DNA of 64,000 nt from a virus (IMGVR_UViG_3300007512_001547:64001-128000), one strand, 5' to 3'; shown: positions 5,198-60,838, counted from the stretch's first letter. The notes: generated from the letters alone by a model not told the origin. A program made the numbers and translations.

Positions 5198-6289
5198 ATG
5201 TTTGATGTTAAACAAAACAAAGCAATATGTATTTTACCATGGGTCCATGAGTTTAAAAATATAACTGGACAATCTGCTCCTTGTTGCCATGCACAAAAAT
5301 ACAAAAATAACCAAACCATAGATTATGTAAGAGACTCTATGTTGAAGGGCATACAACCTGATGTATGTAGTAATTGTTACAAAAGTGAAAAAGAATCAAA
5401 TTGGAGTCATAGAATAAGAGAAACCAACGATTGGATTAAAAAATTTGGTACTCCAGACATAGATAATCCAAAAATACAATTTGCAGATATTAGATACAAT
5501 CCAACTTGTAATTTAAAATGTAAAACTTGTAATGCAGAAGAAAGCACTTTATGGGCAAAAGAAAAAGGCATAAAAATTTCTATAAATGAAGAAAATCAAA
5601 ATTATATCCATACATTAGATAAAAAAATACTTAAAAAAGTTTACCTTGCAGGAGGAGAACCCACTTTTATAAAAGACTATTTAGAATTTTTAAATGCTTT
5701 ACATCTTGTTAATCCTTTTTGTGAAGTAATTATTAACACAAATCTAAAAAGACTGCCTGCTCCATGGAAAGAAATAATTAAAAAATTTGAAAATTTAACA
5801 ATAATTTGTTCTTGTGATGCTGTTGGTATACTTGGTACATATGTACGTTATCCTTTAGGTTGGGATGAATTTGAACAAAACGTTAAATTTGTAAGTGAGA
5901 ATGCAAACTTTCTACAATTTAATTTAGTTGCAAGTAATTTAACTTCTCACAAATTATACGAAACTTGCTCATGGATGAAGCAATATTCAAATCATATTAA
6001 TATATCTATTTTAAATGAACCCGAAATTTTTTTAGAATGTAGTGTACCATTGGAATACAGAGAAACATACATTAATAATATTAAAAAACTATTAAAATTT
6101 CCTGTATCTGTTTATTATGCTTCACAATTCAGAAGTGAAATAAACTATCTAATCAAAAAATACTCGACAGCGAAATATGTAAAATCATCACATAATGCGT
6201 TAAAAGACGAAATTACTGAACAAGATTCGCATAGACACTTAAAACTAATAGACGTTGATCCATTTTTACACTCTTGGATATTTCAATAA
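5198..6289 (+). CDS. Twitch/SPASM-domain radical SAM protein (paralog 1)
   Basis: N-terminal CILPW..PCC..CSNC, then CNLKCKTC and AGGEP. Confidence 0.88.
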   Translation: MFDVKQNKAICILPWVHEFKNITGQSAPCCHAQKYKNNQTIDYVRDSMLKGIQPDVCSNCYKSEKESNWSHRIRETNDWIKKFGTPDIDNPKIQFADIRYNPTCNLKCKTCNAEESTLWAKEKGIKISINEENQNYIHTLDKKILKKVYLAGGEPTFIKDYLEFLNALHLVNPFCEVIINTNLKRLPAPWKEIIKKFENLTIICSCDAVGILGTYVRYPLGWDEFEQNVKFVSENANFLQFNLVASNLTSHKLYETCSWMKQYSNHINISILNEPEIFLECSVPLEYRETYINNIKKLLKFPVSVYYASQFRSEINYLIKKYSTAKYVKSSHNALKDEITEQDSHRHLKLIDVDPFLHSWIFQ

Positions 6290-6299
6290 ATATTCATAT

Positions 6300-6908
6300 A
6301 TGCGAATAAATGAAATCCTAGAAGGTCCACACGATCCTTTTAGACATAAAGCAATATTTTTTGCTGGCTCTCCTGGTGCAGGTAAAACATATGTTGCTAG
6401 AAAATTAGCAGGTGTATTCCAAGGATTAAAACAAGTAAACATGGACACTTGGTTTAAACGTCTCATGACAAAGAAAAACTTATCATGGAAAATGCCTCCT
6501 GAAGAGGAACCTGAACGAGAAAAACAAAGACAAAGATCAAAAGAATTAGTTGCTAAACAACAACAATTACACACCGAAAGTGGATTAGGTTTGCTAATAG
6601 ATTCTACAGGTAGAGTATATGAAACTATTGAAAGAATAAAAAGTGGATTAGAAGATAAAGGATATGAAACAACAATGGTTTTTGTCAACACTGATTTACA
6701 AACTGCTTTACGTAGAAACAAACAAAGAGAACGTCAATTACCTGACGATCTTATACATAAAAATTTTGAAGTTATAGAACAAAATTTAGGAAGATTTCAA
6801 CGTTTGTTTAATGACGTACATATTATTAATAATTCTGATGATGAACAAGACACAATGCCTGAACAAATAGTACAAGTTGAAAAAGACATTAGAAAATTTT
6901 TGCAATGA
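6300..6908 (+). CDS. P-loop kinase (AAA_33/zeta-toxin-like) with CTS-like N-terminus
   Basis: Walker A GSPGAGKT, LLIDST and ALRRNKQR lid. Start placed at MRINEILEG (6300) behind TAAATA 6287-6292. Confidence 0.75.
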   Translation: MRINEILEGPHDPFRHKAIFFAGSPGAGKTYVARKLAGVFQGLKQVNMDTWFKRLMTKKNLSWKMPPEEEPEREKQRQRSKELVAKQQQLHTESGLGLLIDSTGRVYETIERIKSGLEDKGYETTMVFVNTDLQTALRRNKQRERQLPDDLIHKNFEVIEQNLGRFQRLFNDVHIINNSDDEQDTMPEQIVQVEKDIRKFLQ

Positions 6909-10248: not shown

Positions 10249-10256
10249 ATACTACT

Positions 10257-18231: not shown

Positions 18232-18969
18232 ATGATAGATATCTTGAAAGACATTGTCAAGCATACGCATGGCTTGGGATTTTTAGATCTTGTTAAAATT
18301 ACTGGAGACAGTAACGAGACTGTCATTGATTCAATGGCAGAAGACAGATCAGTTATCTTGCAAGGATCTTTTCACAAACCACAATCAGAAATGGTTGGTA
18401 CTTTTGGTATGCCACAGTTAGGCAAACTAGATATTCACTTGAAGTGCCCAGAATATAAAGAAAAAGCAAAAATAACTGTACTCAAAGGAACTAGGAATGG
18501 CGCTGAAGTGCCAACAGGTATTCATTTTGAAAATGAAAAAGGTGACTTTAAGAACGATTACAGATTTATGAATGCTGAAATTATCAACGAGAAACTTAAA
18601 ACAGTTAAATTTAAAGGTGTTAAGTGGGACGTTGAAATTGAACCAAGTGTGGCAAGTGTACAAAGATTTAACTTTCAGTCAGTAGCAAATACAGAACACA
18701 ATTCTTTTGTTGTTAGAACAGAGAATGGTAACCTGGTATTCACATTTGGTGATCAAGCATCACACGGTGGAGAATTTGTTTTTGCAAACGGAATGAATGG
18801 AACTCTAAACAAAGGATGGAGTTGGCCTGTAGCACAGGTATTGCAAATACTGAAACTCTCTGATTCGGCAAAAGTTATGTTGCATTTTTCTAACGAAGGT
18901 GCAATGATGATTTCTGTTGATTCAGGACTTGGCAAGTATCAATATATTATTCCAGCTCAGGCGCAATAA
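18232..18969 (+). CDS. DNA sliding clamp-like processivity factor (gp45-like)
   Basis: About 245 aa with an alternating beta/alpha pattern ending in KYQYIIP; close to the polymerase. Confidence 0.6.
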   Translation: MIDILKDIVKHTHGLGFLDLVKITGDSNETVIDSMAEDRSVILQGSFHKPQSEMVGTFGMPQLGKLDIHLKCPEYKEKAKITVLKGTRNGAEVPTGIHFENEKGDFKNDYRFMNAEIINEKLKTVKFKGVKWDVEIEPSVASVQRFNFQSVANTEHNSFVVRTENGNLVFTFGDQASHGGEFVFANGMNGTLNKGWSWPVAQVLQILKLSDSAKVMLHFSNEGAMMISVDSGLGKYQYIIPAQAQ

Positions 18970-21592: not shown

Positions 21593-21593
21593 A

Positions 21594-21791
21594 ATGGCTG
21601 GTAAAAACAAAAAATTAAAAAAATTACAAGATCATCATGATTACCTAAATCGAAAGGTAGATGACCTTACCAAAGACAGAAAAAAAGATAGAAGTGATGA
21701 AAGCAAACAACTTTTAATGCGTTTGAAAAAAACCAAACTTGCGATAAAAGATGCAATCGCTAAAACCAAACAAACATTGACAAAATCTTAG
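21594..21791 (+). CDS. DUF465/YdcH-like coiled-coil protein
   Basis: HDYLNRKVDDL...LKKTKLAIKDAI pattern. Confidence 0.6.
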   Translation: MAGKNKKLKKLQDHHDYLNRKVDDLTKDRKKDRSDESKQLLMRLKKTKLAIKDAIAKTKQTLTKS

Positions 21792-23847: not shown

Positions 23848-23865
23848 GTCATCTAAATAACATGA

Positions 23866-28924: not shown

Positions 28925-28928
28925 TTGT

Positions 28929-28957: not shown

Positions 28958-28975
28958 AGTATATAAGGAGATACA

Positions 28976-29176: not shown

Positions 29177-29179
29177 TAT

Positions 29180-45962: not shown

Positions 45963-46278
45963 TAGTTGGGTACAATTAACAAAAGATTTTGTTAAGGAAT
46001 GGCCCGAGATTCTTGAAGGATTACACTTCAAGAATATGCCCGTCAAATATCTACTTTACTGCAATATTAATCTTAAAAATCATATAACGATACATTATGA
46101 TATTAAAAAAGAATTAAAAATTAAAAGTCAAGATTCTATAGCACGTTTTCTTAAAAAAACAATTGAAGCAAATTACTTTAAAATTAAAAATGTAGATTTG
46201 AAATTTGATATTCCTGCACTAAAACGTGATATGGAATCACGAACAAATACAATATTAGCAAAAACTTTTAAGAAATAA
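45934..46278 (+). CDS. hypothetical protein
   Basis: ORF filling the gap up to the aminotransferase. Confidence 0.6.
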   Translation: MPKKLPPKNSSWVQLTKDFVKEWPEILEGLHFKNMPVKYLLYCNINLKNHITIHYDIKKELKIKSQDSIARFLKKTIEANYFKIKNVDLKFDIPALKRDMESRTNTILAKTFKK

Positions 46279-47336: not shown

Positions 47337-48232
47337 GATTAGCAGTAATAGGTACAGGATATTGGGGAAGTAAAATTGTAGATACAATTAAAAAAATGAA
47401 TCTACAAGTATCTCTATATGATTTAAATGACAATATAGATGCAATTGTTCCTAGTTTAATTGATGGTGTAATAATTGCCACTCCTGCACAAACACATATA
47501 ACCCTTGCAAAAGTATTTTTAAGAAGAGGTATTGATTGTTTAGTTGAAAAACCTGCGTTTATGAACATGGCTGAATATAACGAGATAGCACCTTATACTG
47601 CTAATGCAAAATTAATGGCAGGACACATATTGTTATATAATGAACACTTTGATTTTTTAAAACAAACAGTTGTTGACAAAGAAATATTACACATTGAACA
47701 TCGTAGATTGGCATGGGGAAGATTACAAAAAGATATTAATCCAATATTACACTATGCACCACACGACATAGCCATTTTAGATAACTTGTTAGGTACTATG
47801 CCAGATGAGATACATAGCACAGGCATACACATTATAAAACAAACACAACCTGACTTTGTCACTTGTAATTTAAAGTATGGCAAAGTAACTGTACAATTAC
47901 AAATGGGTTGGTACTACCATAAGAAAGTTAGGGATATTTCTGTTATAACAGACAAAGGTACACTTATTTGGAATGATGCTGAGAACAAAAGCAAATGGAT
48001 TAGCCAAACAATAGAAGATGGTCGACAGATACAACATATGGATCTAGACAAAACATTTACTGAATCTACGTCTCCTATGCAGAGACAAATATCAGCATTT
48101 ATAGACTATTGCGAGAAAGACAAATTACCAGATTCAAGCATGGAACATATTAAAAAAGTTACATACATTGTAGAGTGTATGGAGAAAAGTTTAAAAACAG
48201 GAGAGGTTGTATGTCCTTCAAAAAAATATTAG
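47333..48232 (+). CDS. Gfo/Idh/MocA NAD-dependent dehydrogenase
   Basis: GTGYWG, IATP, VEKP and HDI. Confidence 0.9.
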   Translation: MRLAVIGTGYWGSKIVDTIKKMNLQVSLYDLNDNIDAIVPSLIDGVIIATPAQTHITLAKVFLRRGIDCLVEKPAFMNMAEYNEIAPYTANAKLMAGHILLYNEHFDFLKQTVVDKEILHIEHRRLAWGRLQKDINPILHYAPHDIAILDNLLGTMPDEIHSTGIHIIKQTQPDFVTCNLKYGKVTVQLQMGWYYHKKVRDISVITDKGTLIWNDAENKSKWISQTIEDGRQIQHMDLDKTFTESTSPMQRQISAFIDYCEKDKLPDSSMEHIKKVTYIVECMEKSLKTGEVVCPSKKY

Positions 48233-48852
48233 CCATAGGTGCACATCCAGACGATGTTGAACTAGGTTGCTCAGGTACATTATTAAAGTATCAAGCAGAA
48301 GGTTCTCACATTGACATTGTTATTTGTAGAGATGATAACGCACCAAAGCCAAGTACTTGGAGAGACAGAGAAAAGATGCAGACAGAATACAAAAAGTCTG
48401 AAGAACTATTTGGAATTAAATTTAATATACTTGAAAATCCTACCGATAACGATGGAAGGCCAGTTCTAGAATGGAATAGTAAGTTTGTTAAGAAAATGGA
48501 CGACATTGTTTATAATGACAACTATGATCTTATAATAACACACAGTCCAGGAGACCATCATCAGGATCATGTGAATACTTTTCACATTGTTAATTCTTCT
48601 TTACGTAGATGGAAAGGAGAGTTTTGGTTGATGGAGGGCGGACCATACAGTAATAAAAATCAACAATTTAACCCAAATGTGTTTATAGACATATCTGATT
48701 ACATAGATAAAAAAATCGAGTTAGTTAGTTGTTATGACAGTTATTTCTCTGATACATTATTACACAATATAAAAGGACTTGCGGCATACAGAGGACAGAT
48801 GACTGACTCTAAATATGCTGAAGCTTTCGAATGCAAATGGAGAACACTATGA
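48211..48852 (+). CDS. PIG-L/LmbE family deacetylase
   Basis: GAHPDDVELG, HQDH and YAEAF; start MSFKK at 48211. Confidence 0.9.
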   Translation: MSFKKILAIGAHPDDVELGCSGTLLKYQAEGSHIDIVICRDDNAPKPSTWRDREKMQTEYKKSEELFGIKFNILENPTDNDGRPVLEWNSKFVKKMDDIVYNDNYDLIITHSPGDHHQDHVNTFHIVNSSLRRWKGEFWLMEGGPYSNKNQQFNPNVFIDISDYIDKKIELVSCYDSYFSDTLLHNIKGLAAYRGQMTDSKYAEAFECKWRTL

Positions 48853-49850
48853 GAATACTAATATTAGGGGGCTATGGATTTATAGGTAGCCATATTTGTC
48901 AACAATTAAAATCAGAAGGACACACAATAGGAGTTGTAGATTGTTATCATCAATATTACACGTTTCCAGATTGGGAATACTATCCTGTGCTTAATCAAAG
49001 AAAAGAAATTACAAAAACAGATAAAGAATACATAGGACAAATAGAAAACTTTCAATTTATGGAACAAACATTTGAAGATTTTAAGCCAGACAGAATTATT
49101 CATGTTGCTACTTTTCCAAATGCAAAAATGGTTAAAAGAAATGTGTTAGATGCAACTAATAATATGATTACTGCTACTGCATACATATTAGATCTATGTG
49201 TCAAACATAAGGTACAAAAGATAGTTTATGCTTCAAGCAGTATGGTATATGGAGAGTTTAATAATCAAATACCAGACGAAGAAGTTATACCAGAACCAAA
49301 TACATTGTACGGCTCATACAAAAAACAAGGTGAAACTATGTGCAAGATATGGAACAGAGAGTATGGCTTACCTTATATTATTATGAGACCATCAGCACTT
49401 TATGGCACACGTGATACTATATGCAGAGTCATCAGCCAAATGTTAAAGAGTGTATTAACGACCGGTGATATGACTGTGCAGGGACCTGATAATAAATTAG
49501 ACTTCTCAAATGTACTGGATGTTGCCAAATACTTTTCATTAGCTACTACAAACGAAGTACTCAACGAAACATTTAATTGTACTCGTGGTAATGGTAGAAA
49601 AATTATAGACGCGGCAGAGATAATAAAATCAAAAATAGGTACTGGAAATATTATTACTAAACCACATGATTCATTCTATCCAAACAGAGATACACTAAAC
49701 AGTGATAAAGCAAAAACTATGTTTAATTTTAATCCAACAATAGATATAGAAGAAGGTATTCCAAAATATATTAATTGGTTTTTAGAACAACCTTTTTATT
49801 TTAATAATTTAAATATTAATCCAAAGTTTGCTCTGGGTACAAAGACTTAA
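48849..49850 (+). CDS. NAD-dependent nucleotide-sugar epimerase/dehydratase
   Basis: GGYGFIG, ASSSMVYG, YGSYK and RPSALYG; start MRILIL. Confidence 0.88.
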   Translation: MRILILGGYGFIGSHICQQLKSEGHTIGVVDCYHQYYTFPDWEYYPVLNQRKEITKTDKEYIGQIENFQFMEQTFEDFKPDRIIHVATFPNAKMVKRNVLDATNNMITATAYILDLCVKHKVQKIVYASSSMVYGEFNNQIPDEEVIPEPNTLYGSYKKQGETMCKIWNREYGLPYIIMRPSALYGTRDTICRVISQMLKSVLTTGDMTVQGPDNKLDFSNVLDVAKYFSLATTNEVLNETFNCTRGNGRKIIDAAEIIKSKIGTGNIITKPHDSFYPNRDTLNSDKAKTMFNFNPTIDIEEGIPKYINWFLEQPFYFNNLNINPKFALGTKT

Positions 49851-51147
49851 ACTGCTCTTTAATCCATTCATAATCATAAGAATACATTAATTTATTGTAA
49901 TCATTTTTGTAGTTGTTGTAATGCTTCTGACCATCAACTGCACCTTGATATATCCATTTAGCATTCTCACCATTACCCAACGTACTCCATTTTTTAAGTC
50001 TGTATTTAGATTCCACTGTTGGTTTCATTTGTAATAATTTTATAACTTCCCTAAATGATGACCTATAAGCTAACAATGGTGTTTCGTTACAGTTACTAAT
50101 TGCAGACAATATAGGTACTGAATGATGTGCTTGTGACAATGTAAAATCTAAACCTGGCTTTGTTGTTTTCATTACTAGATCTTTATTGTAAAGTATAACG
50201 CCTCCCCAACCATATGTTAGATCTATCACAGAATTATAACAATCAAATATGTAATGACAAGGGTTCCTTAACCTCTCTGGTTGAAAATCGAATTTAAAAC
50301 TATCTACTATTTCGCTCTTTGGGAACACAGCAAAGAAATATTCTGTTTTACTCATCTGTGCCGCGGCCATGTAAGCAAGTGTCTGTCCTTGTACACCTTT
50401 GCTCCATTTAGCTCTAGGAAATTTTTCTTTTAATTTATTATATCGTTTTTCAGCACTAGGTTCGTCATACGATATAAAAACTATGTCCATTGGATTTATA
50501 TTATAGTCTAAGTCATAATGTACACTTCTTTCTACATCATAAAATTGTTTTAAATTATCTTGCTTTGGTACCAACATAATATCTTTTGTGTTACCCCAAG
50601 AATACAGTTTAACGTCTTCCCAGAAGCTAGGGTAAAAATTTGGCACTTTGTCAGGATCCAATTCTTTATTATACAGCCATGTATAGTATTCTTCACTGTT
50701 ATTGTATGCGGTAATTGGATCACTTAATTTAAATGCAATTTTTGGTATTATGTTTTGAAAAAGATTAGCATGAGCATGATAATTAATGTCTTGAAAATCT
50801 CGCAAATATTGTATGTTGTACATCTGTTCTTTAAATTCTTTTGTAGGTATCAACATAATATTACCTTCTTTATTTGTTCCACCGTTAGGGTGCGTGTTGT
50901 ACCATACGTGTATTTGATTTTTTTCGTGTTGTTCTGGAATGTAATCTATATCTATAGTTTTCATATTAATGAAACTAGAAAAAAACCAGAAGTACTCTGT
51001 CTTAATCTCCCCTACTACACTCTTAAGTATTTCAAAATAACTCTTAACAAAAGGTACTACCCTAGTGTTAGCAAAAGGACTTGGAAAAAATCCTGTATCT
51101 TTAAATCTGACCTGTACACTATCAAACGCCATAAAAGTCTCCACCAT
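49816..51147 (-). CDS. two-domain GT-A glycosyltransferase-like protein
   Basis: The C-half DIVFISYDEP..GVQG..GWGGVILY is paralogous to 60825-61724; the N-half looks like a diverged copy. Confidence 0.6.
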   Translation of the reverse strand: MVETFMAFDSVQVRFKDTGFFPSPFANTRVVPFVKSYFEILKSVVGEIKTEYFWFFSSFINMKTIDIDYIPEQHEKNQIHVWYNTHPNGGTNKEGNIMLIPTKEFKEQMYNIQYLRDFQDINYHAHANLFQNIIPKIAFKLSDPITAYNNSEEYYTWLYNKELDPDKVPNFYPSFWEDVKLYSWGNTKDIMLVPKQDNLKQFYDVERSVHYDLDYNINPMDIVFISYDEPSAEKRYNKLKEKFPRAKWSKGVQGQTLAYMAAAQMSKTEYFFAVFPKSEIVDSFKFDFQPERLRNPCHYIFDCYNSVIDLTYGWGGVILYNKDLVMKTTKPGLDFTLSQAHHSVPILSAISNCNETPLLAYRSSFREVIKLLQMKPTVESKYRLKKWSTLGNGENAKWIYQGAVDGQKHYNNYKNDYNKLMYSYDYEWIKEQFKSLYPEQTLD

Positions 51148-51156
51148 TAAGTTTTA

Positions 51157-52620
51157 TCATAGTACTTTTACTCCATATTTGGCTGTCCAGTCTTTACCAT
51201 CTTTGGTGTCATTTACCATTGGCATACCCTTAATGTTCAAACTGGTGTTTAACAATATTGGACAACCTGTTTTCTTTTTCCATGCTTTAAGTAACTCATA
51301 AAACCCTTCGTTATCGCTTTTAGCGACGGTTTGCACCCTAGATGTATTATCATAGTGTATTATGGCAGGACAGTCTTTACCATGCGTGTACGTTGCTGTA
51401 TATTGCATATAAGGGGTGTTTAAAACACCTTTAGGTAGCTTAAAATACTCGTTTACATCCTCTTCTAAAATGGCAGGAGCAAACGGTCTAAACTTTTGTC
51501 TTCTTTTAATTTGATTTACCATATCCTTAATTTCCAATCCTCTTGGGTCAGCTAAAAGAGATCTATTACCAAGAGCTCTTGGTCCAAACTCTGCTCTACC
51601 ATTTGCAACTCCTACCATTTTATTTTCTGTTAATTCTTTTATAATTTTATCTACTGGATATTCTCCTTCTATGTTATATCCTAAAAATGGACTCTTCCAA
51701 TCTAAGTGTCTTTGTTCCGATGCCGCGATACATCCTAACGAACTTCCTGCATCTCCTGGATTAGGTATAATCCAAATGTTATCAAACAATCCCATATTTG
51801 CTAATGCAGTGTTTGCCGCACAATTAAGAGCAACTCCGCCTGCATAAACTAAATTTCTGCTACCATACTTAGATGCTCTATGCCATAAATCTGCAAGACA
51901 TTCTTCAAGAACTGATTGTATACTTGCGGCTATATCCATAACATCTGCTTCTGGATGCCAATCACTTAACCCTCTATGTAAATTCTTTTTTAATTTAAAA
52001 GGTGATTGTATCACAAAGTCTTCATAGATATCATCTTTATATCTTGGTTTTCCATAAGCCGCCATTCCCATTAAAATATATTCTTCTTCTGCAGGTTTTA
52101 ATCCACAACGTTGTGTAAATGCAGAATATAATATGCCCAAACTATGTGGATACTTTATAGTTTCTTTTCGTTCTATCCAAACTTTGTTAGCAGTAGATAT
52201 TGATACTGTATCCCATTCACCTATTGCATCCACTGTTAAAATAGTTGCTTCTCGAAATGGTGAAGTAAAATATCCTGCCGCGGCATGACTATCATGATGT
52301 TTTACATATTCATCTATTTTAATTTTAAAATTATCTAAATGCCATTGTGGCATTTCTGTATAACTTAAAGCATCACTGTATTGTCCTGCATAAAATTGTC
52401 GTGTTTTCTTTAATAAAGGTTTTTCGTAATAAACAACTTTGTCAAAAGGACCATATGTCATTGCTTCATTTACTATTCGCCAATTTAAATAAAAATCATT
52501 TTTAACTTTTGAATAACGTTCTGCATGAGCGGCCCATAGCACTTCGCCTATACCACTGCTGTAATCAACAACTGCCATTGCGGCATCGTGATTCATACAG
52601 TTTATACCTAATATTCTCAT
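51157..52620 (-). CDS. NodU/CmcH/TobZ-type O-carbamoyltransferase
   Basis: HDAAMA, HHDSHAAAG, VDAIGE, GGVALNC, EFGPRALGNRS, RPFAP and NTSLN. Confidence 0.93.
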   Translation of the reverse strand: MRILGINCMNHDAAMAVVDYSSGIGEVLWAAHAERYSKVKNDFYLNWRIVNEAMTYGPFDKVVYYEKPLLKKTRQFYAGQYSDALSYTEMPQWHLDNFKIKIDEYVKHHDSHAAAGYFTSPFREATILTVDAIGEWDTVSISTANKVWIERKETIKYPHSLGILYSAFTQRCGLKPAEEEYILMGMAAYGKPRYKDDIYEDFVIQSPFKLKKNLHRGLSDWHPEADVMDIAASIQSVLEECLADLWHRASKYGSRNLVYAGGVALNCAANTALANMGLFDNIWIIPNPGDAGSSLGCIAASEQRHLDWKSPFLGYNIEGEYPVDKIIKELTENKMVGVANGRAEFGPRALGNRSLLADPRGLEIKDMVNQIKRRQKFRPFAPAILEEDVNEYFKLPKGVLNTPYMQYTATYTHGKDCPAIIHYDNTSRVQTVAKSDNEGFYELLKAWKKKTGCPILLNTSLNIKGMPMVNDTKDGKDWTAKYGVKVL

Positions 52621-53171
52621 CTTTTTAATTTAAACCATTTTTTTGCTTGTTTTAAATAATTTTTCCACCATTTATTTTCAATTGTATATTCAAAATTTTG
52701 TGAGGTTTTGTTTACTTGTAATTCTTTAGCACCATTCCTTAAATGAAATTCTCGTGCCATATCTGTTAATGGTGATAATGTAACTAATCGATTTAAATGA
52801 TTTGATTTTTTAATCATTTTAAAAACTTCTTGTATTATTCTTTTTCCACCACCTTTTTTCTTTGACCAAACTGTATAAGCAATAGCAATATTGCCTTGTA
52901 TTCCTGCTCTATGAGTTGCCTGTATAAAAGCATCTTTACTCATTAAATCTAATTCTTCTATCGTCTTTGGTATTTCGTGTGTAAAGGCAAAGCACATAAC
53001 CGCAACAATATCTTTGCCAAGTTTTAAACCATATATTTTTCTACCCCAATCTTTTCTAAACTTATTATCCAATTCAGGCCTCACAGGATCTTCTTTGAAA
53101 TGACAATATTTCATTTCAACTAACTCCACTTTTTTAAGCCAATCAAATGTTAACTTTTTAATTTTTTTCAT
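52617..53171 (-). CDS. GNAT-like acetyltransferase-fold protein
   Basis: YTVWS..KGGGKRII and AREFHLRNG resemble GNAT motifs A and B. Confidence 0.45.
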   Translation of the reverse strand: MKKIKKLTFDWLKKVELVEMKYCHFKEDPVRPELDNKFRKDWGRKIYGLKLGKDIVAVMCFAFTHEIPKTIEELDLMSKDAFIQATHRAGIQGNIAIAYTVWSKKKGGGKRIIQEVFKMIKKSNHLNRLVTLSPLTDMAREFHLRNGAKELQVNKTSQNFEYTIENKWWKNYLKQAKKWFKLKR

Positions 53172-53455
53172 TTGTTTACTTTTATTTCTTCACTCTCTCC
53201 ATAATACGGAGATGCAAGAGAGTGTGGTTTTATTATAAATCCTCTTATATTATACATTTTAATTTGTGCTAATAAATTTCCTGCTTCTGCTAAAGCAAAC
53301 CAAAATGCATTTTTTTCATAGAGATAAATCCAACTAAACTTCCTAGGATATTTCTTACCGTTAATATAAACTTTCCAACCATTAACAATATTATAATTTC
53401 CCCATTTATGTTTAATATTAAACCTTCGACTAAATTTTTTACATTTAATTTCCAT
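53168..53455 (-). CDS. hypothetical protein
   Basis: Coupled ORF. Confidence 0.5.
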   Translation of the reverse strand: MEIKCKKFSRRFNIKHKWGNYNIVNGWKVYINGKKYPRKFSWIYLYEKNAFWFALAEAGNLLAQIKMYNIRGFIIKPHSLASPYYGESEEIKVNK

Positions 53456-53462
53456 TTAAATC

Positions 53463-53567
53463 TTATTTGTATATAAACGGGTCTTTTTTCTTTAGTTCTT
53501 TTAATCTTTTACGATAAGCAAGTTCTTGCTTAATCTTATTGATTATTTTTTTAATCCATCCGAACAT
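53463..53567 (-). CDS. 34-aa basic peptide; not in supplied ORF track
   Basis: AGGAGG SD; MFGWIKKIINKIKQELAYRKRLKELKKKDPFIYK. Confidence 0.7.
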   Translation of the reverse strand: MFGWIKKIINKIKQELAYRKRLKELKKKDPFIYK

Positions 53568-54372
53568 TTTTTCCTCCTATTATTTCATTAAACTTAGGTT
53601 GCATTAATTTTACAGCATCTCTGTGTGCTTTGTCTAGCGGGTGTGTTGTACCACGTTCATATTCATTCAATAATGCCCATTGATTAAATCCCATACAACG
53701 ATCACCAAAGAAAAACCATCTGGTTAAATCTATTTCTTTATGTAATGCTAACATAAATGGATCTTGATCTTTGTGGTTATCAAAGTCTCTGTAAAACAAA
53801 CTATTATCAGCAAGTGTAAACATATATGGAATTTTCTTTTTTTCTAAAATATTCTGTAACCAAATAATAGATTTCCAGCTCAAATATGTTTCATGATATT
53901 CATTAGCGGCGTGTTTATAAATTGCTTCAGCAAATGGTTTAACTCCTGTATTAATTAATAACTCTTCTCTTCTTTTCCATTGTTCTTGTTGTGCTTCGGA
54001 TCCTACTAACGCAGTATGTCGCTCTTCACTTGCTATTTTAGTGTCCCAGGGAGATATTGTTGCCCAACGAGTTTTTTCTAAATTTCTATGTCGTGGCATC
54101 GCCCAATCATAACGAGATAAAAAACTCCACATTACAACAACACAACCAATATCTGTTGTATTTGCTACTGCATTAAAAACTCTTCTTGCAATTCCTGGAT
54201 TTCCTGTACCAGGTCTTGCTGTACAAATATAATTGTCTGGTTGACAATAATTTTCTTCTTGACTTAAAACATATGCCCAACTTTGCTTAGATGGTGTTTT
54301 ACCTTCATTATCATCAGACAATTCGTGTCCAAATGTAAAACTACAACCTCCTGCTATAAATTTTTTATTCAT
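53551..54372 (-). CDS. SGNH/GDSL hydrolase-like protein
   Basis: GGCSFTFG block I, GTGN and a C-terminal THP. Confidence 0.6.
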   Translation of the reverse strand: MNKKFIAGGCSFTFGHELSDDNEGKTPSKQSWAYVLSQEENYCQPDNYICTARPGTGNPGIARRVFNAVANTTDIGCVVVMWSFLSRYDWAMPRHRNLEKTRWATISPWDTKIASEERHTALVGSEAQQEQWKRREELLINTGVKPFAEAIYKHAANEYHETYLSWKSIIWLQNILEKKKIPYMFTLADNSLFYRDFDNHKDQDPFMLALHKEIDLTRWFFFGDRCMGFNQWALLNEYERGTTHPLDKAHRDAVKLMQPKFNEIIGGKNVRMD

Positions 54373-55531
54373 ATATTTGTAATACCTTATTTAAAAGTGG
54401 AAAAACATCTCCAAAATCTTCTTTTCTATACTTGTCTGTTTGTAATATCCTTGCTTTTCTTTGCTCTCTAATTTCTTCTGAATCTCTATGTGCTGAATTC
54501 ATAAATCTTAATGTGGGTTGAAAATCTGTAAGCATTGAGTATCTACTATTAACAATATTTTTAACCTGTTTAGGTAATGTTTGTATGTTAAAATAATCTG
54601 GATCAAAACAGGTATTAACATAAAAGAATTTAGGTTGATATTGTGCTACCCATAATGAAATTTTTGCTAAACTAAAAATATTAAAAATACTAATTGTTGT
54701 ACAAATTTGAAACTCCATATTATGAGTTTGATATGTTTTAAACTCTACAAGATTATGATTAACTTCTCTCCAGTTAGCAGGGTGTCTTTGATATTGAAAC
54801 TGCTCTCCTACATCATCAATACTAAATGCTATTTCAACTCTTTTAAAATATCTCCACAGGTCAAATATTTCTCTAGGCGGCAATTGTGTTCCATTTGTGT
54901 TGTAGTGTATATCTATATTTTTTGCATAACCTTTTTCAACACAATGCATTAATATTTTAAAATGATCTCGTATCATAAAAGGTTCACCACCTGTAAACTC
55001 AAAATATTCTGCATCTGCTAAACATTCTTGTATGTCATCAAAAAATGTAGGATGTTTTTTTGGCCAACCACCTTCTTTTAGATTTTTTCTTGCGACTGGA
55101 TTTTCTCCATAATCTAATTCTTCCTGTGCCCACTTGCTGGAACTCCAACTGCCACATATTCTACATTTTAAATTACATACGTTGCCCAACTTAAAATCTA
55201 TAAACTTTAGTGTTGGCTCGCTATTAGGGGTCCAGTCTTTTAAACTGTTACGCATTTTATAAATTGAATTCATACGTTTTGATGTTTTTCCAACACTTTC
55301 TTCTTGCCAACAACTTTCACAACTTAAAGGACGTTCTCCATTTTTAAATTTTTGTCTTAATTTTTTCATATATTCAGAACTTTGTATTGTTTTTAAATCA
55401 GTTTCATATACTTTAACATTGGGTATATTTCCTTTATATAAACAACAAGGCGAAGCACCTCCATTTACATCTACTTCTAAATGTGTCCACGGTAATGGAC
55501 ATATATTTGATTTTATATACTTTTCCACCAT
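54365..55531 (-). CDS. Twitch/SPASM radical SAM protein (paralog 7)
   Basis: ICPLPW..PCC..CESCW, CNLKCRIC and TGGEP. Confidence 0.9.
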   Translation of the reverse strand: MVEKYIKSNICPLPWTHLEVDVNGGASPCCLYKGNIPNVKVYETDLKTIQSSEYMKKLRQKFKNGERPLSCESCWQEESVGKTSKRMNSIYKMRNSLKDWTPNSEPTLKFIDFKLGNVCNLKCRICGSWSSSKWAQEELDYGENPVARKNLKEGGWPKKHPTFFDDIQECLADAEYFEFTGGEPFMIRDHFKILMHCVEKGYAKNIDIHYNTNGTQLPPREIFDLWRYFKRVEIAFSIDDVGEQFQYQRHPANWREVNHNLVEFKTYQTHNMEFQICTTISIFNIFSLAKISLWVAQYQPKFFYVNTCFDPDYFNIQTLPKQVKNIVNSRYSMLTDFQPTLRFMNSAHRDSEEIREQRKARILQTDKYRKEDFGDVFPLLNKVLQIYE

Positions 55532-56859
55532 TCCAATACCTCTGGTTCTTTTATTAATATTTTTGTAATATCTGTTCCACGAATTTTATCTAAACGCTCG
55601 CATTCTTCTTTTCCTGATTTCCAACCTTTCATACAAGTTTCTTTATCATAACGTTGTTCATTAGTAGGATGATTTTTCAAATCGTCCAATCCTTCTAAAA
55701 ATGCCATGTTAAACACTGTAGGTTTTTCGTTTTTAACTTTGTCTTTAACTTTGTCTACCATTTTGTGTAATAATTTTTGAGGCATAAACAAAGGACTCAT
55801 GAATACATCAGGACTAAAAGTAAATACTTTTTTACATAATAACGGTATTTTCAAATCTTTTTGTAATTCATACATATTTTCTAAGTCAAATAATCCAGGA
55901 AGTGTTACAGTAAGATCTAATTGTAATTGTCTTGGATGCCTTACGAATTTTTTTGCATATTGCATATTAGAATACCATTCGTTATATTTTAAACCTGTTC
56001 TAATATATTCACCAATTTCGCCAGTTCCGTCTATTGATGCATTTATTTGCCAATCTTGAAATTTTGAAAGAATATCATCAAATAAATTTAATTTAAAAAA
56101 TTTAATTCTACTCATATTAGAATTATACCTAACATAAACTTGATTTGCATATCCTAATTCTACTACACGTTGCATGGCAATCCAGTGTATTTTCCACATT
56201 AACGGTTCTCCACCGCACCAATAAAACTCTCTAATAGTTTTCTCTTCAATTGCTTTTGTAAATTCTTTAACCATTGTTTGATCATGGAACTTTTGCAATA
56301 TTGCTTGTACATCTTTCCTACCCCAAATTCTATATTTTGTGTATAGTTCAGGTTTGCGATGTTTTTTATTTTCCGCCTCCCAACTACTACTCAACATATC
56401 ACCACACATTCTACAACTAAAATTACAAAGATTAGAAAATCTATAATCCCAACTAACAACTTTCATTGTTGTTACACCGGTGTCATCTGTTGACTCAAAT
56501 GCTTTATCTATATCGTTTCCGTAAAATCTGTTGAAGTGCTGTCTATACACCTGTGCATTAAGCAGTTTATGATTACAAGTAGCACATTGTGGTATTTCTT
56601 CTCCGGCCATTAATTTAAGCCTAACTGATTTCATATATTCAGAATTCCAATGCTCATCTAAACTTTTTAAATTAATTTTACCTGAACTTATATTACTCTT
56701 ATAATCTTTTGGTAGTGTGTCAATATATTGTTTAAAATTATTGGAATCTTCACGACTTGCACAACACAATCGCCTTTCCATTTGAGGTGACATATAAGTA
56801 TGCACCCATGGCGCCATACAGAATGTTTTATTACCTTCGTTTGGTTTAATTTTTTTCAT
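55513..56859 (-). CDS. Twitch/SPASM radical SAM protein (paralog 8)
   Basis: Start moved to MKKIKPNEG (56859); FCMAPW..LCC..CATC, CNFSCRMC and CGGEP. Confidence 0.9.
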   Translation of the reverse strand: MKKIKPNEGNKTFCMAPWVHTYMSPQMERRLCCASREDSNNFKQYIDTLPKDYKSNISSGKINLKSLDEHWNSEYMKSVRLKLMAGEEIPQCATCNHKLLNAQVYRQHFNRFYGNDIDKAFESTDDTGVTTMKVVSWDYRFSNLCNFSCRMCGDMLSSSWEAENKKHRKPELYTKYRIWGRKDVQAILQKFHDQTMVKEFTKAIEEKTIREFYWCGGEPLMWKIHWIAMQRVVELGYANQVYVRYNSNMSRIKFFKLNLFDDILSKFQDWQINASIDGTGEIGEYIRTGLKYNEWYSNMQYAKKFVRHPRQLQLDLTVTLPGLFDLENMYELQKDLKIPLLCKKVFTFSPDVFMSPLFMPQKLLHKMVDKVKDKVKNEKPTVFNMAFLEGLDDLKNHPTNEQRYDKETCMKGWKSGKEECERLDKIRGTDITKILIKEPEVLEWWKSI

Positions 56860-58138
56860 ATTTGTCAAATAATTCTTTCCATTCTGGAAACGTATCAGTA
56901 AACGTTTCGTCTCTAATTTTATCATATTTCTTTGTTTCTCTGAAAAACAATTCAAGTTTATCTGTTTTATCTCTTCTAAAAAGATAATCCAAAGCACTTT
57001 CATATCCTTTAGTTGCACGAGTAAGATGATCTTGTGCTTTTAACCATTCTATATGTTTTTCGTATTTTTCTTTTATTTGTTGCTTAAATTCTTCTGGCAA
57101 AAGATCCATACGTTGCCATAACGGAAACTGCAATAAATTAAAATTAAAATCTTGTGGTTTAATCAATCCTTGCTCTACCCAATTCTTATGAAAATCTACA
57201 ACGTGTAATGCATTTACTAATCCTACTGTTGAACTAATATAAAAATCAACTTGTGGACAAACTACTAACATACGTTTTCTATTTGCTACAATATCTTTCC
57301 ATACAGTTCCTTTACGCATTAATTCTGCTCTTGGTCCTTCTGCATCTAAACTTGCTCCTATAGATACTGAATCAAATTTATTCCATAATTCAAATATATC
57401 TGTACCTTTAAATTTGGACTTACTAAAATTTGTATTATAAATTAACCTAACATGATACATTTTACGTTTGTCTAATTCTTTTAAAATTCTTAGATGTTCT
57501 TCCATTATAATTGGTTCACCACCAGCAAAATAAAACTGTTCCACATGATCAAATTGTTCTAATAATTGATCCCATATATCATTAGAAGTCCTACCAACTT
57601 TCATAATTTTTGCATGGGGTGGTGGACTACCTGTTAATTTTTTGTGATCTTCGTACCAATTAGAACTAAACCATGTACCACAACTTCTACAAGCCATGTT
57701 ACACAAATTACTAAAACGTATATCCCAATATTTTATTACAAAGTCTGCTGAACCATCTGACTGTGTAGTATTAACCATATCAATATTATGTCCAAAATGT
57801 TTGTTTGAACTTAAACGTAAACTAAAGAATCCAGATTTTTCTTGATCATAACACTTAAAACATTCACGTGATGGTTTGTTTGCTAACATATTCAAACGCA
57901 TTTGTTTCATTTTATCACCATTCCAAACTTCAGCCATTGATTGTTTATTAAGATCACCAACTGGCAATTTGTCTAAAGCAAAACAACAAGAATATGCTCT
58001 GCCATCTGGAAATGCGTGAAGGTGCATCCATGGCAACATACAAAAATTGTCACTTTCTATTAATAACTCCTTTTGTTTAGGAGTCATATCTTTTATTTTT
58101 AATTTCTCAGGCTCTTTTGCTCCGTACTCATATGCCAC
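56846..58138 (-). CDS. Twitch/SPASM radical SAM protein (paralog 9)
   Basis: FCMLPW..SCC..CFKCY, CNMACRSC and AGGEP. Confidence 0.9.
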   Translation of the reverse strand: MAYEYGAKEPEKLKIKDMTPKQKELLIESDNFCMLPWMHLHAFPDGRAYSCCFALDKLPVGDLNKQSMAEVWNGDKMKQMRLNMLANKPSRECFKCYDQEKSGFFSLRLSSNKHFGHNIDMVNTTQSDGSADFVIKYWDIRFSNLCNMACRSCGTWFSSNWYEDHKKLTGSPPPHAKIMKVGRTSNDIWDQLLEQFDHVEQFYFAGGEPIIMEEHLRILKELDKRKMYHVRLIYNTNFSKSKFKGTDIFELWNKFDSVSIGASLDAEGPRAELMRKGTVWKDIVANRKRMLVVCPQVDFYISSTVGLVNALHVVDFHKNWVEQGLIKPQDFNFNLLQFPLWQRMDLLPEEFKQQIKEKYEKHIEWLKAQDHLTRATKGYESALDYLFRRDKTDKLELFFRETKKYDKIRDETFTDTFPEWKELFDKYEKN

Positions 58139-59471
58139 GATACCATTCTCCTATTATTGGGAAAGTTTTTTCAAAATCTTTTCCTCTTCGTTTGTCATAT
58201 TGACTATAAAATAACTTAAAGTCTTTTTGTAATTTTTCTCTTGCGGCCGCTCCAGCGTGTGGTGTTTTAACAACATCTAAATAATCAATTAATCTTTGTG
58301 TATGATTAATTTCCATTTCTTCTAAATGTTGTTGATTATTTTTTAAAAATTTTTCAATATCCCCTTTAAACTTATTACGTAAATCATCTGGCAATACCAA
58401 AGGTGATTGAAAACTTGGAAACCTTAAAATATTAAGTGTATAATTTATTGTTGGTCCGTAAATCTTACTTGCATTTTTTAACCATACAATTTTTTCTAAA
58501 AATTCAGCCAGTGATTCTAAACACAATGCATTGATTGTACACATATTGTGAATTTCTGCTGGTACTTTATCAACCATCATGTGTAATACTTGACTATACC
58601 AATCTCCATAATTTAATCCGTCTCTAATATATTCTGCTTGTCTAAATGTTGCTTCATTACTAGTGTACAAGTGAAATCTATCAAAGTTTTTTAATTTCTT
58701 TTTAAAACGTTCTATAATATCTTGTTTTGCACCTAAATTAGAATTAATTGCAATACGCATATGAGGATTCATTTTGTGTCCTTGTGTTTCTATCCAATCT
58801 AACAGTCTCCATAAATTAGGCGACATCATAGGTTCACCGCCTGTTATTCTTAATTCATCTAAACTTTTATGCAAATCTGTTTCCCACCAAGTGTAAAATG
58901 CTTCAACATAAGGATTAGTTTCATCTTTTTTATAAGGTTCTGCTGATTCATGACTGTGAGTAAAATGATTTCTTCCGTCTGTTGTCATATCTGTGTATGG
59001 ACCTTTTTGTTTAATGTCTCTTGCCCATGTTGTGCTAAATGCAGGATTGCAATAAGAACAAGCAAAATTACAAGTTCTGTCAAATGCTATTTCTAATGTT
59101 TTTAAATTCCAATCAATTTCGTGACTCTCAGTAAATGCTTCTTCTAAATGACCACTGTCAAATATTTTTGATTTGTATACCCTATCTGATATAGCATCTT
59201 TGCCAATGTCTTCTATTTTCCAACAATATTCACAACCTGCAGGTCTTTCACCACACTGCATTTGTTTACGTTGCTCCTTCTTTTGCCATGTATTGTGTAT
59301 TGCAGATGGATTTGTTTTTATTTCTTCTAAATCTATTTTGTGTGGTAATGGGTGATGACAACTTGTAGTCATACCACTGCCTAACCATATAGTTGCATTG
59401 AACCATTTAGCACCACAAAAACTTGCTGACTTTGTATCTAATATTTGTTTTTTATATTCTAAATCTTTCAT
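58128..59471 (-). CDS. Twitch/SPASM radical SAM protein (paralog 10)
   Basis: FCGAKW..SCHH..CEYCW, CNFACSYC and TGGEP. Confidence 0.9.
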   Translation of the reverse strand: MKDLEYKKQILDTKSASFCGAKWFNATIWLGSGMTTSCHHPLPHKIDLEEIKTNPSAIHNTWQKKEQRKQMQCGERPAGCEYCWKIEDIGKDAISDRVYKSKIFDSGHLEEAFTESHEIDWNLKTLEIAFDRTCNFACSYCNPAFSTTWARDIKQKGPYTDMTTDGRNHFTHSHESAEPYKKDETNPYVEAFYTWWETDLHKSLDELRITGGEPMMSPNLWRLLDWIETQGHKMNPHMRIAINSNLGAKQDIIERFKKKLKNFDRFHLYTSNEATFRQAEYIRDGLNYGDWYSQVLHMMVDKVPAEIHNMCTINALCLESLAEFLEKIVWLKNASKIYGPTINYTLNILRFPSFQSPLVLPDDLRNKFKGDIEKFLKNNQQHLEEMEINHTQRLIDYLDVVKTPHAGAAAREKLQKDFKLFYSQYDKRRGKDFEKTFPIIGEWYRGI

Positions 59472-60838
59472 GCGTTTTTACACTCCTGCCAAAATTCTGA
59501 CATTTCTGGGAATACTGTTTCAAAGTTTGTTAAGCGTCTACGATCATGTTCGTTAAAAAATGCGTAAAAGTTCTTTTTAGTTTGCGTACTAGTGTCTGCA
59601 TTTTTACGCCAATAAGCTAAATTGCGTAACATTTTTTGAATCTCAAAGTCTTTGAATATGTGTAATCCTTTATCTTCTCCAGAATTTTCTCTCATATATT
59701 CTATGTTGGCTTCATGTATTGCTTGATATGCCTCAGGCAATAATGTTATCTGTTGCCATGCAGGCTGTCTAAGCAATGGTATATCAAACCATACTCGTTG
59801 ATACGTTTTACTATGTCGTTTTCGTAATTCTAAAATACCTTCTAATAACTTATCCAAACTTGTAACACTAAGATTATTGTATGTGATTATAAAAGTAACT
59901 GAATTACGTACTGGTATACGATCCAAAAATTCATCTACATTATCCCACATACGATTAAATTCTAATCCATTTCTAATATATTCTGCTTGTTTACCCCATG
60001 CATCAACTGAAACAAATTGCATGAAATGTTCAACTTTCTCCTCAATACAGATTTTCTTAACCATATCAAAATATTTGTTTTTTAATTTGTTATTAGGTGG
60101 ACACATATTACTGGTTACGTTTAAGTGTAAGTCTTGTTTTGGATTATTAATAACGTATTCAAATACTTTATATGTGTTATTGTCCATCATAGGTTCACCA
60201 CCTGTCATACGAAAATGTTTTAAATTTTTATATAATGTAGGCCACCACTTCCAAAAAGCAGTAACATAAGGATTATCTTCTTTATGTGGTATTGGACGTT
60301 TTCTTCCTTGAAAGTGTTCAGGTGCATTGTGGGGAGGAGATGTTGGATATTGGCCATATACAGCAATCTCCTTCCCCCACGTTGTCGAGAATTGTGGTGA
60401 GCAATAAGAACACTTAAAATTACAAGCATTATTAAAGTTTACTTCCACATATCTCGGTGTCCAACGTTCGTCCATTGGATTTTGTTTAATTGCTGTAAAG
60501 TCTTGCATGGCCCATGGTTCACCAGAACGATAATGTCTATCTGACATTTCGCCTGTGTCTTCCATTTTCCAACAATATGAACAACCCTCAGGCCGTTCTC
60601 CTTTAAGCATTTGTTGTCTTTGATTTAATTTTTCTGCTGTATTATGTAGTGCCGCAGGATTATCTTCTAATTTTGTTGCATCTATTTCATGTAAAGGTGG
60701 ATGATAGCAACTGTTTGTTAATCCAGTAGGCAAGTGTAATGAAACTTGATTCCATTTTGCCAAACACATAGTTGGTGAAACATTATCAAGTAAACTTTTA
60801 GCCAACTCTGCATCTGCTTTATAATTACTTGTACTCAC
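59468..60838 (-). CDS. Twitch/SPASM radical SAM protein (paralog 11)
   Basis: MCLAKW..SCYH..CSYCW, CNFKCSYC and TGGEP. Confidence 0.9.
   Translation of the reverse strand: MSTSNYKADAELAKSLLDNVSPTMCLAKWNQVSLHLPTGLTNSCYHPPLHEIDATKLEDNPAALHNTAEKLNQRQQMLKGERPEGCSYCWKMEDTGEMSDRHYRSGEPWAMQDFTAIKQNPMDERWTPRYVEVNFNNACNFKCSYCSPQFSTTWGKEIAVYGQYPTSPPHNAPEHFQGRKRPIPHKEDNPYVTAFWKWWPTLYKNLKHFRMTGGEPMMDNNTYKVFEYVINNPKQDLHLNVTSNMCPPNNKLKNKYFDMVKKICIEEKVEHFMQFVSVDAWGKQAEYIRNGLEFNRMWDNVDEFLDRIPVRNSVTFIITYNNLSVTSLDKLLEGILELRKRHSKTYQRVWFDIPLLRQPAWQQITLLPEAYQAIHEANIEYMRENSGEDKGLHIFKDFEIQKMLRNLAYWRKNADTSTQTKKNFYAFFNEHDRRRLTNFETVFPEMSEFWQECKNA

Follow-up and report, generated by a model that had tools for sequence, protein, structure and literature searches.

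The DNA described here is a 64,000-nucleotide window, bases 64001-128000 of the 137,583-bp viral contig IMGVR_UViG_3300007512_001547 in IMG/VR, and its subject is a set of eleven paralogous genes, spread over positions 5198-60838 of the window, which encode radical S-adenosylmethionine (SAM) enzymes with an inverted domain order. Judging from its genes, the source of the contig, which is ~29% complete (CheckV) and low in G+C (~31%), is an uncultured marine jumbo phage. This assignment, which agrees with the phage origin proposed in an earlier reading of the same sequence (the original prediction), holds because the record is a viral one in IMG/VR, because the family-B DNA polymerase is nearest to those of jumbo phages (best match Sinorhizobium phage Phosso, 469 kb, 51% identity; then Agrobacterium phage Atu_ph07, 490 kb, 46%, and ~350-kb Rak2/121Q-like E. 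coli phages), and because PHROG searches of the contig returned a T4-type baseplate-wedge connector and several fibre-like/virion-structural proteins.

As the original prediction had counted, exactly eleven open reading frames (ORFs) in 5198-60838 carry a CxxxCxxC motif followed by GGEP (ORF listing and motif scan). Each of the eleven aligns along its whole length with the NCBIfam model NF033640 (N_Twi_rSAM, "twitch domain-containing radical SAM protein") and scores 190-403 bits, where the curated cut-off is 170 bits. Five lie in a tandem array, which we call the core, and six are dispersed, which we call accessory (NF033640 scores in brackets):

59468-60838, minus strand: core N_Twi radical SAM 1, SC[YH]H subtype (334 bits)
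58128-59471, minus strand: core N_Twi radical SAM 2, SC[YH]H subtype, sister of the 59468 copy (295 bits)
56846-58138, minus strand: core N_Twi radical SAM 3 (403 bits)
55513-56859, minus strand, the ORF extending to 57018: core N_Twi radical SAM 4 (314 bits)
54365-55531, minus strand: core N_Twi radical SAM 5 (359 bits)
5198-6289, plus strand: accessory N_Twi radical SAM, orphan allele occupying a conserved slot (191 bits)
20420-21592, plus strand: accessory N_Twi radical SAM whose start overlaps the stop of a TGT-like gene (336 bits)
23866-25020, plus strand: accessory N_Twi radical SAM, sister of the 27180 copy (268 bits)
27180-28316, plus strand: accessory N_Twi radical SAM (253 bits)
31209-32387, plus strand: accessory N_Twi radical SAM between IMPDH/GMP-reductase-like and phosphoribosyltransferase genes (275 bits)
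40191-41348, plus strand: accessory N_Twi radical SAM, a strain-specific cassette (208 bits)

In every copy a cysteine motif, C-x17-18-C-x26-58-CxxC, lies N-terminal of the CxxxCxxC core, and ten of the eleven carry a C-terminal DxxR...[F/I]P motif, much as had been foreseen from a DxxR...FPE-like ending in many of them; the 27180 copy is without it. The summed length of the proteins is 4,461 aa (the estimate had been about 4,400), counting the 55513 copy from the ATG at 56859. This internal ATG is likely the true start of ORF 55513-57018, giving a protein of 448 aa; its orthologues are 447-453 aa long. Ten copies were scanned with Pfam, and all of them matched Radical_SAM (PF04055), with PF13186 (SPASM) matching the N-terminus of five. 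The layout is nevertheless not that of a SPASM protein, in which the domain is C-terminal, with seven or eight cysteines and two auxiliary clusters; here, the domain is N-terminal and has four conserved cysteines. The prokaryotic viperin model NF038283 gave a best score of 38 bits, well below its cut-off of 180.

The mutual identity of the eleven copies is 16-36%, and because it is so low we regard them as old paralogues. The original prediction of a diversified paralogous family of twitch-type enzymes is borne out. Nor are the copies decaying, a possibility that had been raised against them: every motif is intact, and the ratio of nonsynonymous to synonymous substitution rates (dN/dS) is 0.08-0.48. 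Reading frames, motifs and substitution rates show that the predicted proteins are intact, non-redundant members of an uncharacterised N-terminal-twitch radical-SAM family, and that they are under selection.

The contig carries further iron-sulphur (Fe-S) genes outside the window, namely an A-type Fe-S carrier (PF01521, 51 bits) at G000:C1:39800-40105, where G000 denotes the contig analysed here, and a 13th radical SAM of another type (PF04055, 72 bits) at G000:C1:10453-11997. The total is 13 radical SAMs and one A-type carrier on 137 kb, an Fe-S investment that is, as had been supposed, unusual for a phage. A single-family profile search of the contig found no flavodoxin. A marine T4-like viral genome that has 12 radical-SAM genes together with an A-type carrier has been reported in a virome paper, which did not analyse them further (Nishimura et al. 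2017, PMC5332604). With that genome on record, and with the architecture already captured in NF033640, the claim of an undescribed system is qualified. Literature searches (family name, N-terminal twitch, jumbo-phage radical SAM) found no functional study of the family.

The five core genes (54365-60838, minus strand) are translationally coupled, with stop-to-start overlaps. We compared them with related viral genomes, here designated G001, G004, G006 and G007, of which G006 is a distant relative with a 338.5-kb record rated 97% complete. Exactly five tandem copies are present in 41 of 42 fully flanked related viral loci; the remaining locus (L052:5845-16246, in G004) has seven tandem members, the two extras being long-branch copies inserted inside the array. 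Every gene of the operon has been retained in close relatives, as well as in a sub-clade at ~50% identity. In a maximum-likelihood tree each core gene forms its own orthologue clade, with members from both phage sub-clades and support of 99-100 in the Shimodaira-Hasegawa-like approximate likelihood-ratio test (SH-aLRT), and one-to-one core orthologues extend down to ~50% identity, including those in G006. The 59468 copy, for example, is 82% identical to its G001 orthologue (dN/dS 0.11; clade SH-aLRT 99); the values are 0.08 and 99 for the 58128 copy and 0.19 and 100 for the 54365 copy, and the 55513 copy has a dN/dS of 0.17. Over the core, comparison with a relative gives a dN/dS of 0.08-0.19, equal to that of flanking genes (0.07-0.16). 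Synteny, phylogeny and substitution rates together show that the five tandem genes form a fixed, conserved and non-redundant set.

The six dispersed copies have a different history. Their dN against the same relative is 0.26-0.47, compared with 0.04-0.12 for neighbouring genes (a three- to eightfold difference), and dS is raised as well, which suggests exchange with more distant alleles. The 5198 slot, between a cytidylyltransferase/NT5C gene and a P-loop kinase gene, is occupied by a non-orthologous member in G001 and G007, with flanks that are 74-86% identical; an exact-word scan of IMG/VR, which reaches close relatives only, found no relative of the 5198 copy itself. The best IMG/VR relative of the 40191 copy is 50% identical, and both of these copies are long-branch orphans in the tree. 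DNA alignments revealed clean presence and absence of several cassettes: window positions 40180-41317, with the 40191 gene, are missing from G001, where the flanks abut exactly; 20420-21602 is replaced by 43 bp in G007; and 27186-29141, comprising the 27180 gene and a Cys-rich ORF (28286-28924), is missing from G007. The 23866 copy is 63% identical to its G001 orthologue, compared with 86-93% in its flanks (dN 0.26), and the 31209 copy is 46-52% identical to its orthologues, compared with 78-91% (dN/dS 0.25-0.48). These comparisons show that the six dispersed copies are gene-sized cassettes, polymorphic between close relatives and evolving faster than their flanks. The "variable chemistry" anticipated for the whole family fits these six, but not the fixed and conserved five.

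Some further features of the cassettes were noted. At the junction of the 27186-29141 indel, ~36 bp of the relative (L160) aligns to both flanks (27150-27186 and 29141-29180), and this overlap may be microhomology or a short repeat mediating cassette gain and loss. A TAAATA motif stands 5-8 nt before the starts of the 5198, 23866 and 31209 genes (within 5180-5197, 23848-23865 and 31185-31208) and is absent between the five core genes; upstream of the three accessory starts it may be a late-promoter-like element. Right after the 40191 gene, 41422-44473 (plus strand) encodes a MoxR-type AAA+ ATPase, an unassigned 237-aa ORF (42525-43238) and a DUF2201 metallopeptidase/von Willebrand factor A protein, and the MoxR/DUF2201 pair is 90-98% conserved in a relative without the 40191 gene.

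Directly upstream of the core operon, which occupies 49816-63863, three to four paralogous fibre-like/virion-structural genes lie on the same strand, at G000:128891-135759 in contig coordinates. They are followed by a small ORF, the pair 62782-63546 and 61989-62789, the gene 60825-61724, the five radical SAMs and four downstream genes; a convergent group of sugar-type genes meets the operon's end:

61989-62789 and 62782-63546, minus strand: two paralogous operon partners with DxD-type motifs (hhalign probability 98.9% between the pair)
60825-61724, minus strand: conserved operon partner with an invariant DGDN motif, possibly a GT-A-like transferase (weak)
53551-54372, minus strand: conserved partner downstream of the five radical SAMs (synteny)
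52617-53171, minus strand: conserved operon partner (synteny)
51157-52620, minus strand: carbamoyltransferase, a confident assignment (Carbam_trans_N and Carbam_trans_C, E 5e-42 and 9e-53)
49816-51147, minus strand: conserved operon partner at the operon end (synteny)
46278-49850, plus strand: convergent sugar-nucleotide tailoring genes for a DegT aminotransferase, a Gfo/Idh/MocA oxidoreductase, a PIG-L deacetylase and an NAD epimerase/dehydratase (Pfam E 6e-103, 2e-9, 7e-17 and 3e-37)

The synteny of the downstream part (49816-54372) is kept in both phage sub-clades. All of the confidently annotated partners of the core operon are sugar-type enzymes, and the window contains two NAD-epimerase genes, the second amid the accessory copies. 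The pair 61989-62789/62782-63546 matches phrog_1903 (function unknown), which was the only match in a PHROG search of the operon partners; profile searches found no Pfam or PDB match for the pair. For 60825-61724, the comparison with Pfam glycosyltransferase family 2 (GT2) gave E=0.033, which is below the cut-off for significance. Its AlphaFold (AF2) model is mediocre, with a predicted local distance difference test score (pLDDT) of 63, and Foldseek returned no match at E<=0.001, the weak matches being mostly GT-A transferases; a GT-A fold is accordingly not established. The gene 53551-54372 has a GDSL-like motif, GGCSFTFGHE, at its N-terminus, and we rejected an SGNH assignment that had this short motif as its sole basis. 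Its orthologue profile matches baculovirus 38K (AC98) over residues 65-215 at E=1e-5, which is unexplained; PDB-sequence profile searches of five operon partners gave nothing usable beyond this match.

Around the accessory copies the neighbours are of another kind, and include a redoxin, a weak glycosyltransferase family 1 (GT1)-like gene, the NAD epimerase, inosine-monophosphate dehydrogenase (IMPDH)/GMP-reductase-like and phosphoribosyltransferase genes, and the following:

18969-20420, plus strand: putative divergent tRNA-guanine transglycosylase (TGT)/DpdA-like protein, a lead only (invariant GDSGGYQ motif and an ESM Atlas neighbour)
29180-29890, plus strand: GTP cyclohydrolase I
36510-37397, plus strand: divergent QueE-like radical SAM outside the NF033640 family (N-terminus matching five QueE models, E 6e-10 to 2e-8)

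The ESM Atlas neighbour cluster of 18969-20420 is named TGT-like, with PF01702 on 17% of its members (score 0.94), and GDSGGYQ is presumably the TGT catalytic signature. The DpdA/TGT assignment found no support in hidden Markov models (HMMs) or structures (Pfam, NCBIfam, PHROG and PDB all being without a match), so that the motif and the one Atlas neighbour remain. The start of the 20420 radical SAM overlaps the stop of this gene (TAATG), and the adjacency is kept in the distant G006 at ~40% identity, whereas G007 keeps the TGT-like gene without the radical SAM. The QueE-like protein scores 36-39 bits against QueE cut-offs of 200-300, with only its N-terminal 30-40 residues aligning; it may work like QueE but is not classifiable as QueE. 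Together with GTP cyclohydrolase I and the putative TGT-like protein, it suggests a 7-deazaguanine-type pathway, for which the HMM scans that we ran confirmed neither QueC nor QueD.

The family is large. In a search of 1.84 billion proteins, a profile built from the eleven copies matched, at E<=1e-30, the representatives of 8,510 clusters formed at 50% identity, and public genome and metagenome proteins include more than 5,900 homologues of the 56846 copy at E<=1e-10; identities among the 120 homologues listed are 82-86%, and several of these come from Tara. We found 66 related IMG/VR loci. Twelve larger related contigs have 6-11 family matches each at E<=0.001, and G006 has eight members above the cut-off. 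A tblastn search of 50,697 deposited phage records with the 56846 copy, the only one tried, gave three weak matches. Among 14 reference prokaryote genomes, not one encodes a member scoring above the cut-off, which speaks against a housekeeping class, the outcome that the original prediction had named as fatal to it. Beside these counts, and beside the mostly single copies of bacterial loci, eleven in one stretch greatly exceeds what chance would give. The top profile matches (P0121-P0148) are natural fusions of 790-1,400 aa with two to three complete N_Twi modules, which suggests that several such modules work together.

Bacterial members were sought in one genome per prokaryote species with an orthologue alignment of the 56846 paralogue, so that the sample is biased toward that paralogue. 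The ~70 bacterial loci, at 29-41% identity, are mostly single-copy. Their commonest neighbour is GT2, with 11 of 143 ORFs pooled from 21 large-contig or isolate loci, followed by ABC transporters (5), ketosynthases, NTP_transf_5 and PqqD (4 each) and GT1 (3). With iterated HMMs, 16 of 70 loci had GT2 within 4 kb and 10 had PqqD. Most PqqD loci belong to an alphaproteobacterial module, rSAM-PqqD-x-GT2-GT2 (rSAM, radical SAM; L101, L110, L118, L119, L121, L122, L124 and L134), that could encode a glycosylated-peptide pathway. In a Cellvibrionaceae genome the arrangement is rSAM-GT2, in Anderseniella it is rSAM-PqqD, and in Paenibacillus (L093:6293-12530 and L096) the gene sits in a cluster of acyl carrier protein (ACP), rSAM, short-chain dehydrogenase/reductase (SDR) and two ketosynthases (KS), ACP-rSAM-SDR-KS-KS, a context unlike the phage's. 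In the tree, the phage 56846 group shares a small clade (SH-aLRT 99) with three bacterial sequences, L076, L086 and L100; the Acidobacteria L076 and L086 are in GT1/GT2-rich loci, and no glycosyltransferase was detected at the Bdellovibrionales L100. Phylogeny and genome neighbourhoods, which had been proposed as a check, thus resolved the orthologue clades of the core but led to glycan, peptide (PqqD) and acyl-carrier contexts in bacteria. Because these contexts are mixed, a substrate cannot be transferred from family membership, and what defines NF033640 is accordingly its architecture, not a substrate.

Tandem arrays of several copies, with identities of 46-80%, were also seen on short contigs of metagenome-assembled genomes (L067-L075, L077, L106, L113 and L137), labelled as Betaproteobacteria, Verrucomicrobia, Rickettsiales, Flavobacterium, Legionellales, Haliscomenobacter and Undinarchaeota. 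These are unrelated phyla, and the contigs are probably mis-binned phage DNA.

The AF2 model of 56846-58138 (pLDDT 79, predicted template modelling score 0.79), a protein with invariant arginines at positions 108, 275 and 409, was compared with solved structures, none of which is a close relative. Foldseek returned generic radical-SAM cores, CteB, anSME, BlsE and EpeE, at template modelling scores of 0.3-0.4, and VIA-align gave a tie between BlsE (Z 11.9), anSME (11.3), CteB (11.3) and viperin (10.8). The core of the family's sequence profile matches TvgB/TigE (8VPO), and by profile and fold the nearest solved cores are those of SPASM peptide maturases (E 3e-13, Z ~11). The N-terminal 70 residues align by profile to the twitch domain of BtrN at E 4e-4. 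The likeness does not extend to the protein as a whole, since the domain order is permuted and only this 70-residue twitch aligns; BtrN was not listed among the Foldseek and VIA-align matches, an absence that does not by itself exclude it. Since the matches are generic radical-SAM cores with tied scores, we draw no conclusion on substrate from the fold.

We infer, rather than observe, the reaction, the binding of clusters, the class of substrate and the site of the product. In the mechanism that we favour, each enzyme would hold two [4Fe-4S] clusters, one at CxxxCxxC to cleave SAM and another, ligated entirely by Cys, in the N-terminal twitch domain; this domain would correspond to the twitch that is C-terminal in BtrN, in permuted order, and a 5'-deoxyadenosyl radical would abstract a hydrogen atom from the substrate. 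A sugar or glycoconjugate built by the phage would be tailored by the five core enzymes in successive oxygen-independent steps, whether epimerisation, oxidation, dehydration or C-C chemistry, and the product probably decorates the virion fibres. The six accessory cassettes, inserted, lost or swapped between close relatives within a region of nucleotide and sugar metabolism, could plausibly carry this chemistry over to other substrates that are nucleotide-linked, and so give rise to strain-level chemical variation.

That the core set performs radical tailoring of a phage-built glycoconjugate has, in our estimate, a little less than an even chance of being correct. Its genomic context favours such a role: a carbamoyltransferase, the DegT, Gfo/Idh/MocA and PIG-L genes, two NAD epimerases and the fibre-like genes upstream, to which may be added the GT-A-like partner with its invariant DGD motif and the glycosyltransferase-rich loci of L076 and L086, the bacteria in the 56846 clade. 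Several points weigh against it. None of the glycosyltransferase assignments made for the three operon partners reaches significance, so that they are leads only, and we identified no flippase, polymerase or acceptor. The structural neighbours (TvgB, CteB, anSME, SkfB, BlsE, viperin and MoaA) are tied and mix peptide with sugar and nucleotide enzymes. Bacterial members also occur beside PqqD (10 of 70 loci) and ACP/ketosynthase genes, so that the family is not uniform in substrate, and the bacterial sample was seeded from one paralogue. No member of the family has an assigned reaction, and the literature searches found no paper on it. The sugar- or base-tailoring role in the original prediction stays a proposal: context favours the sugar half for the core, and one accessory copy lies beside a TGT-like gene, but the glycosyltransferase assignments are weak, the structural neighbours tied and the bacterial contexts mixed.

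The strongest competitor, which we nevertheless regard as unlikely, is that the enzymes are protein or peptide maturases that install thioether or C-C cross-links, epimerise residues or oxidise Cα positions on the upstream fibre-like proteins or on a small peptide. Most SPASM/twitch enzymes install radical post-translational modifications on peptides, and the best PDB sequence and fold matches include TvgB, SkfB, CteB, SuiB and EpeE, all maturases of ribosomally made peptides with post-translational modifications (RiPPs); the operon directly follows the paralogous fibre-like genes, and a conserved rSAM-PqqD module marks one clade of the family, in alphaproteobacteria. However, this PqqD-linked clade is not the nearest to the phage genes and itself carries two GT2 genes, and the confidently annotated partners in the phage are sugar-type. 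We found no PqqD domain or RiPP recognition element (RRE; PF05402) in the contig or in the near-complete G006, although divergent RREs can escape the model, and this makes action on peptides less probable. No precursor peptide was identified, a systematic search of small ORFs not having been made.

It is more doubtful that nucleotides or DNA bases are the substrates of some or all copies, the dispersed ones above all, for example in making or further altering a 7-deazaguanine-type base inserted into the phage's DNA by a TGT/DpdA-like enzyme. The overlap between the 20420 gene and the TGT-like gene, a pair retained in a relative at ~40% identity, points in this direction, as do GTP cyclohydrolase I and the QueE-like, IMPDH/GMP-reductase-like and phosphoribosyltransferase genes among the dispersed copies, and the nucleotide/nucleoside enzymes viperin, MoaA and BlsE among the nearest folds. 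Yet the TGT assignment consists of a motif and one Atlas neighbour, G007 has lost the 20420 radical SAM while keeping the TGT-like gene, and the five core genes are without nucleotide-metabolism neighbours.

We find it improbable that the substrates are lipids, cofactors or other small molecules, or that the copies are auxiliary metabolic genes which have nothing to do with the virion and reprogramme the host's metabolism. The ACP-rSAM-SDR-KS-KS clusters of Paenibacillus and a weak, sub-threshold similarity to heme, tetraether-lipid and cofactor radical SAMs would fit such a role, but the window is without acyl-carrier or lipid genes, and the core operon stands with fibre-like and sugar genes in every relative examined. 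That most copies are redundant or decaying duplicates without function, as the long-branch orphans 5198 and 40191 and the dispensability of several accessory copies might hint, is scarcely credible when all eleven are intact ORFs above the family cut-off that keep every cluster ligand and GGEP, when their pairwise identities exclude recent duplication, when dN/dS is 0.08-0.48, and when one-to-one orthologues persist across deep divergence.

To return to the glycoconjugate reading of the core, it can be extended to a bolder model in which the five-enzyme operon is a radical-SAM assembly line for a fibre glycan, or a glycan-protein linkage, that is heavily tailored and of a kind not seen before, and the six cassettes vary that chemistry, or the chemistry of DNA bases, to escape host receptors or defences. 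In this full form we consider the model rather unlikely. If true, it would be a new role for radical SAMs in virus biology and would provide the first functions for a family of ~8,500 clusters. The family has its greatest concentration in ocean jumbo phages of an abundant group. Radical SAMs with auxiliary clusters perform some of biology's hardest reactions, and five non-redundant, co-evolving enzymes with their likely partners in one operon are a compact start for substrate discovery. The fixed core, set against the swappable cassettes, suggests that part of the chemistry is under diversifying pressure, which bears on marine phage-host recognition or DNA protection. The gene content also shows that a heavy commitment to oxygen-sensitive Fe-S enzymes is possible for phages.

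In comparison with known systems, the phage proteins agree with NF033640 in their full-length match, the N-terminal four-Cys twitch, CxxxCxxC, GGEP and a C-terminal helical region; they differ in number and arrangement, since bacterial members are mostly single-copy and in mixed contexts, whereas here there are eleven copies, a fixed five and swappable cassettes. The genome of Nishimura et al. 2017 (PMC5332604) is likewise that of an uncultured marine phage with about a dozen radical SAMs and an A-type carrier, but its genes were counted as Fe-S-related auxiliary metabolic genes, without family, architecture, orthology or context. The SPASM maturases (anSME, CteB, SkfB and TvgB/TigE 8VPO) provide the nearest solved cores, and PF13186, their domain, matches the phage N-terminal domain. 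Their SPASM domain, however, is C-terminal, with seven or eight cysteines and two auxiliary clusters, and is usually accompanied by an RRE, whereas the phage copies have four N-terminal cysteines and no RRE was detected.

BtrN, the 2-deoxy-scyllo-inosamine dehydrogenase of butirosin biosynthesis, is the prototype twitch enzyme, and the sugar epimerases HygY and SpeY are of the same class. The phage proteins share with BtrN a single auxiliary [4Fe-4S] site with four cysteines, which in the phage is predicted, and their N-terminal domain aligns to the BtrN twitch; the spacing C-x18-C-x~40-CxxC presumably resembles that of BtrN. The DegT, PIG-L, Gfo/Idh/MocA and carbamoyltransferase context also recalls aminoglycoside and sugar pathways. 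The differences are that the phage twitch is N-terminal to the core, and hence permuted, and that neither the sequence nor the fold comparisons of the whole protein place BtrN among their top matches. Finally, viruses are known to build glycans of their own, as in the capsid glycans of chlorovirus PBCV-1, the fibril glycans of mimivirus and virion glycosylation in mycobacteriophages, although we know of no radical-SAM enzyme in these three systems. What the phage has in common with them, a likeness drawn from genes alone, is its own set of sugar-nucleotide and transferase genes beside structural genes.

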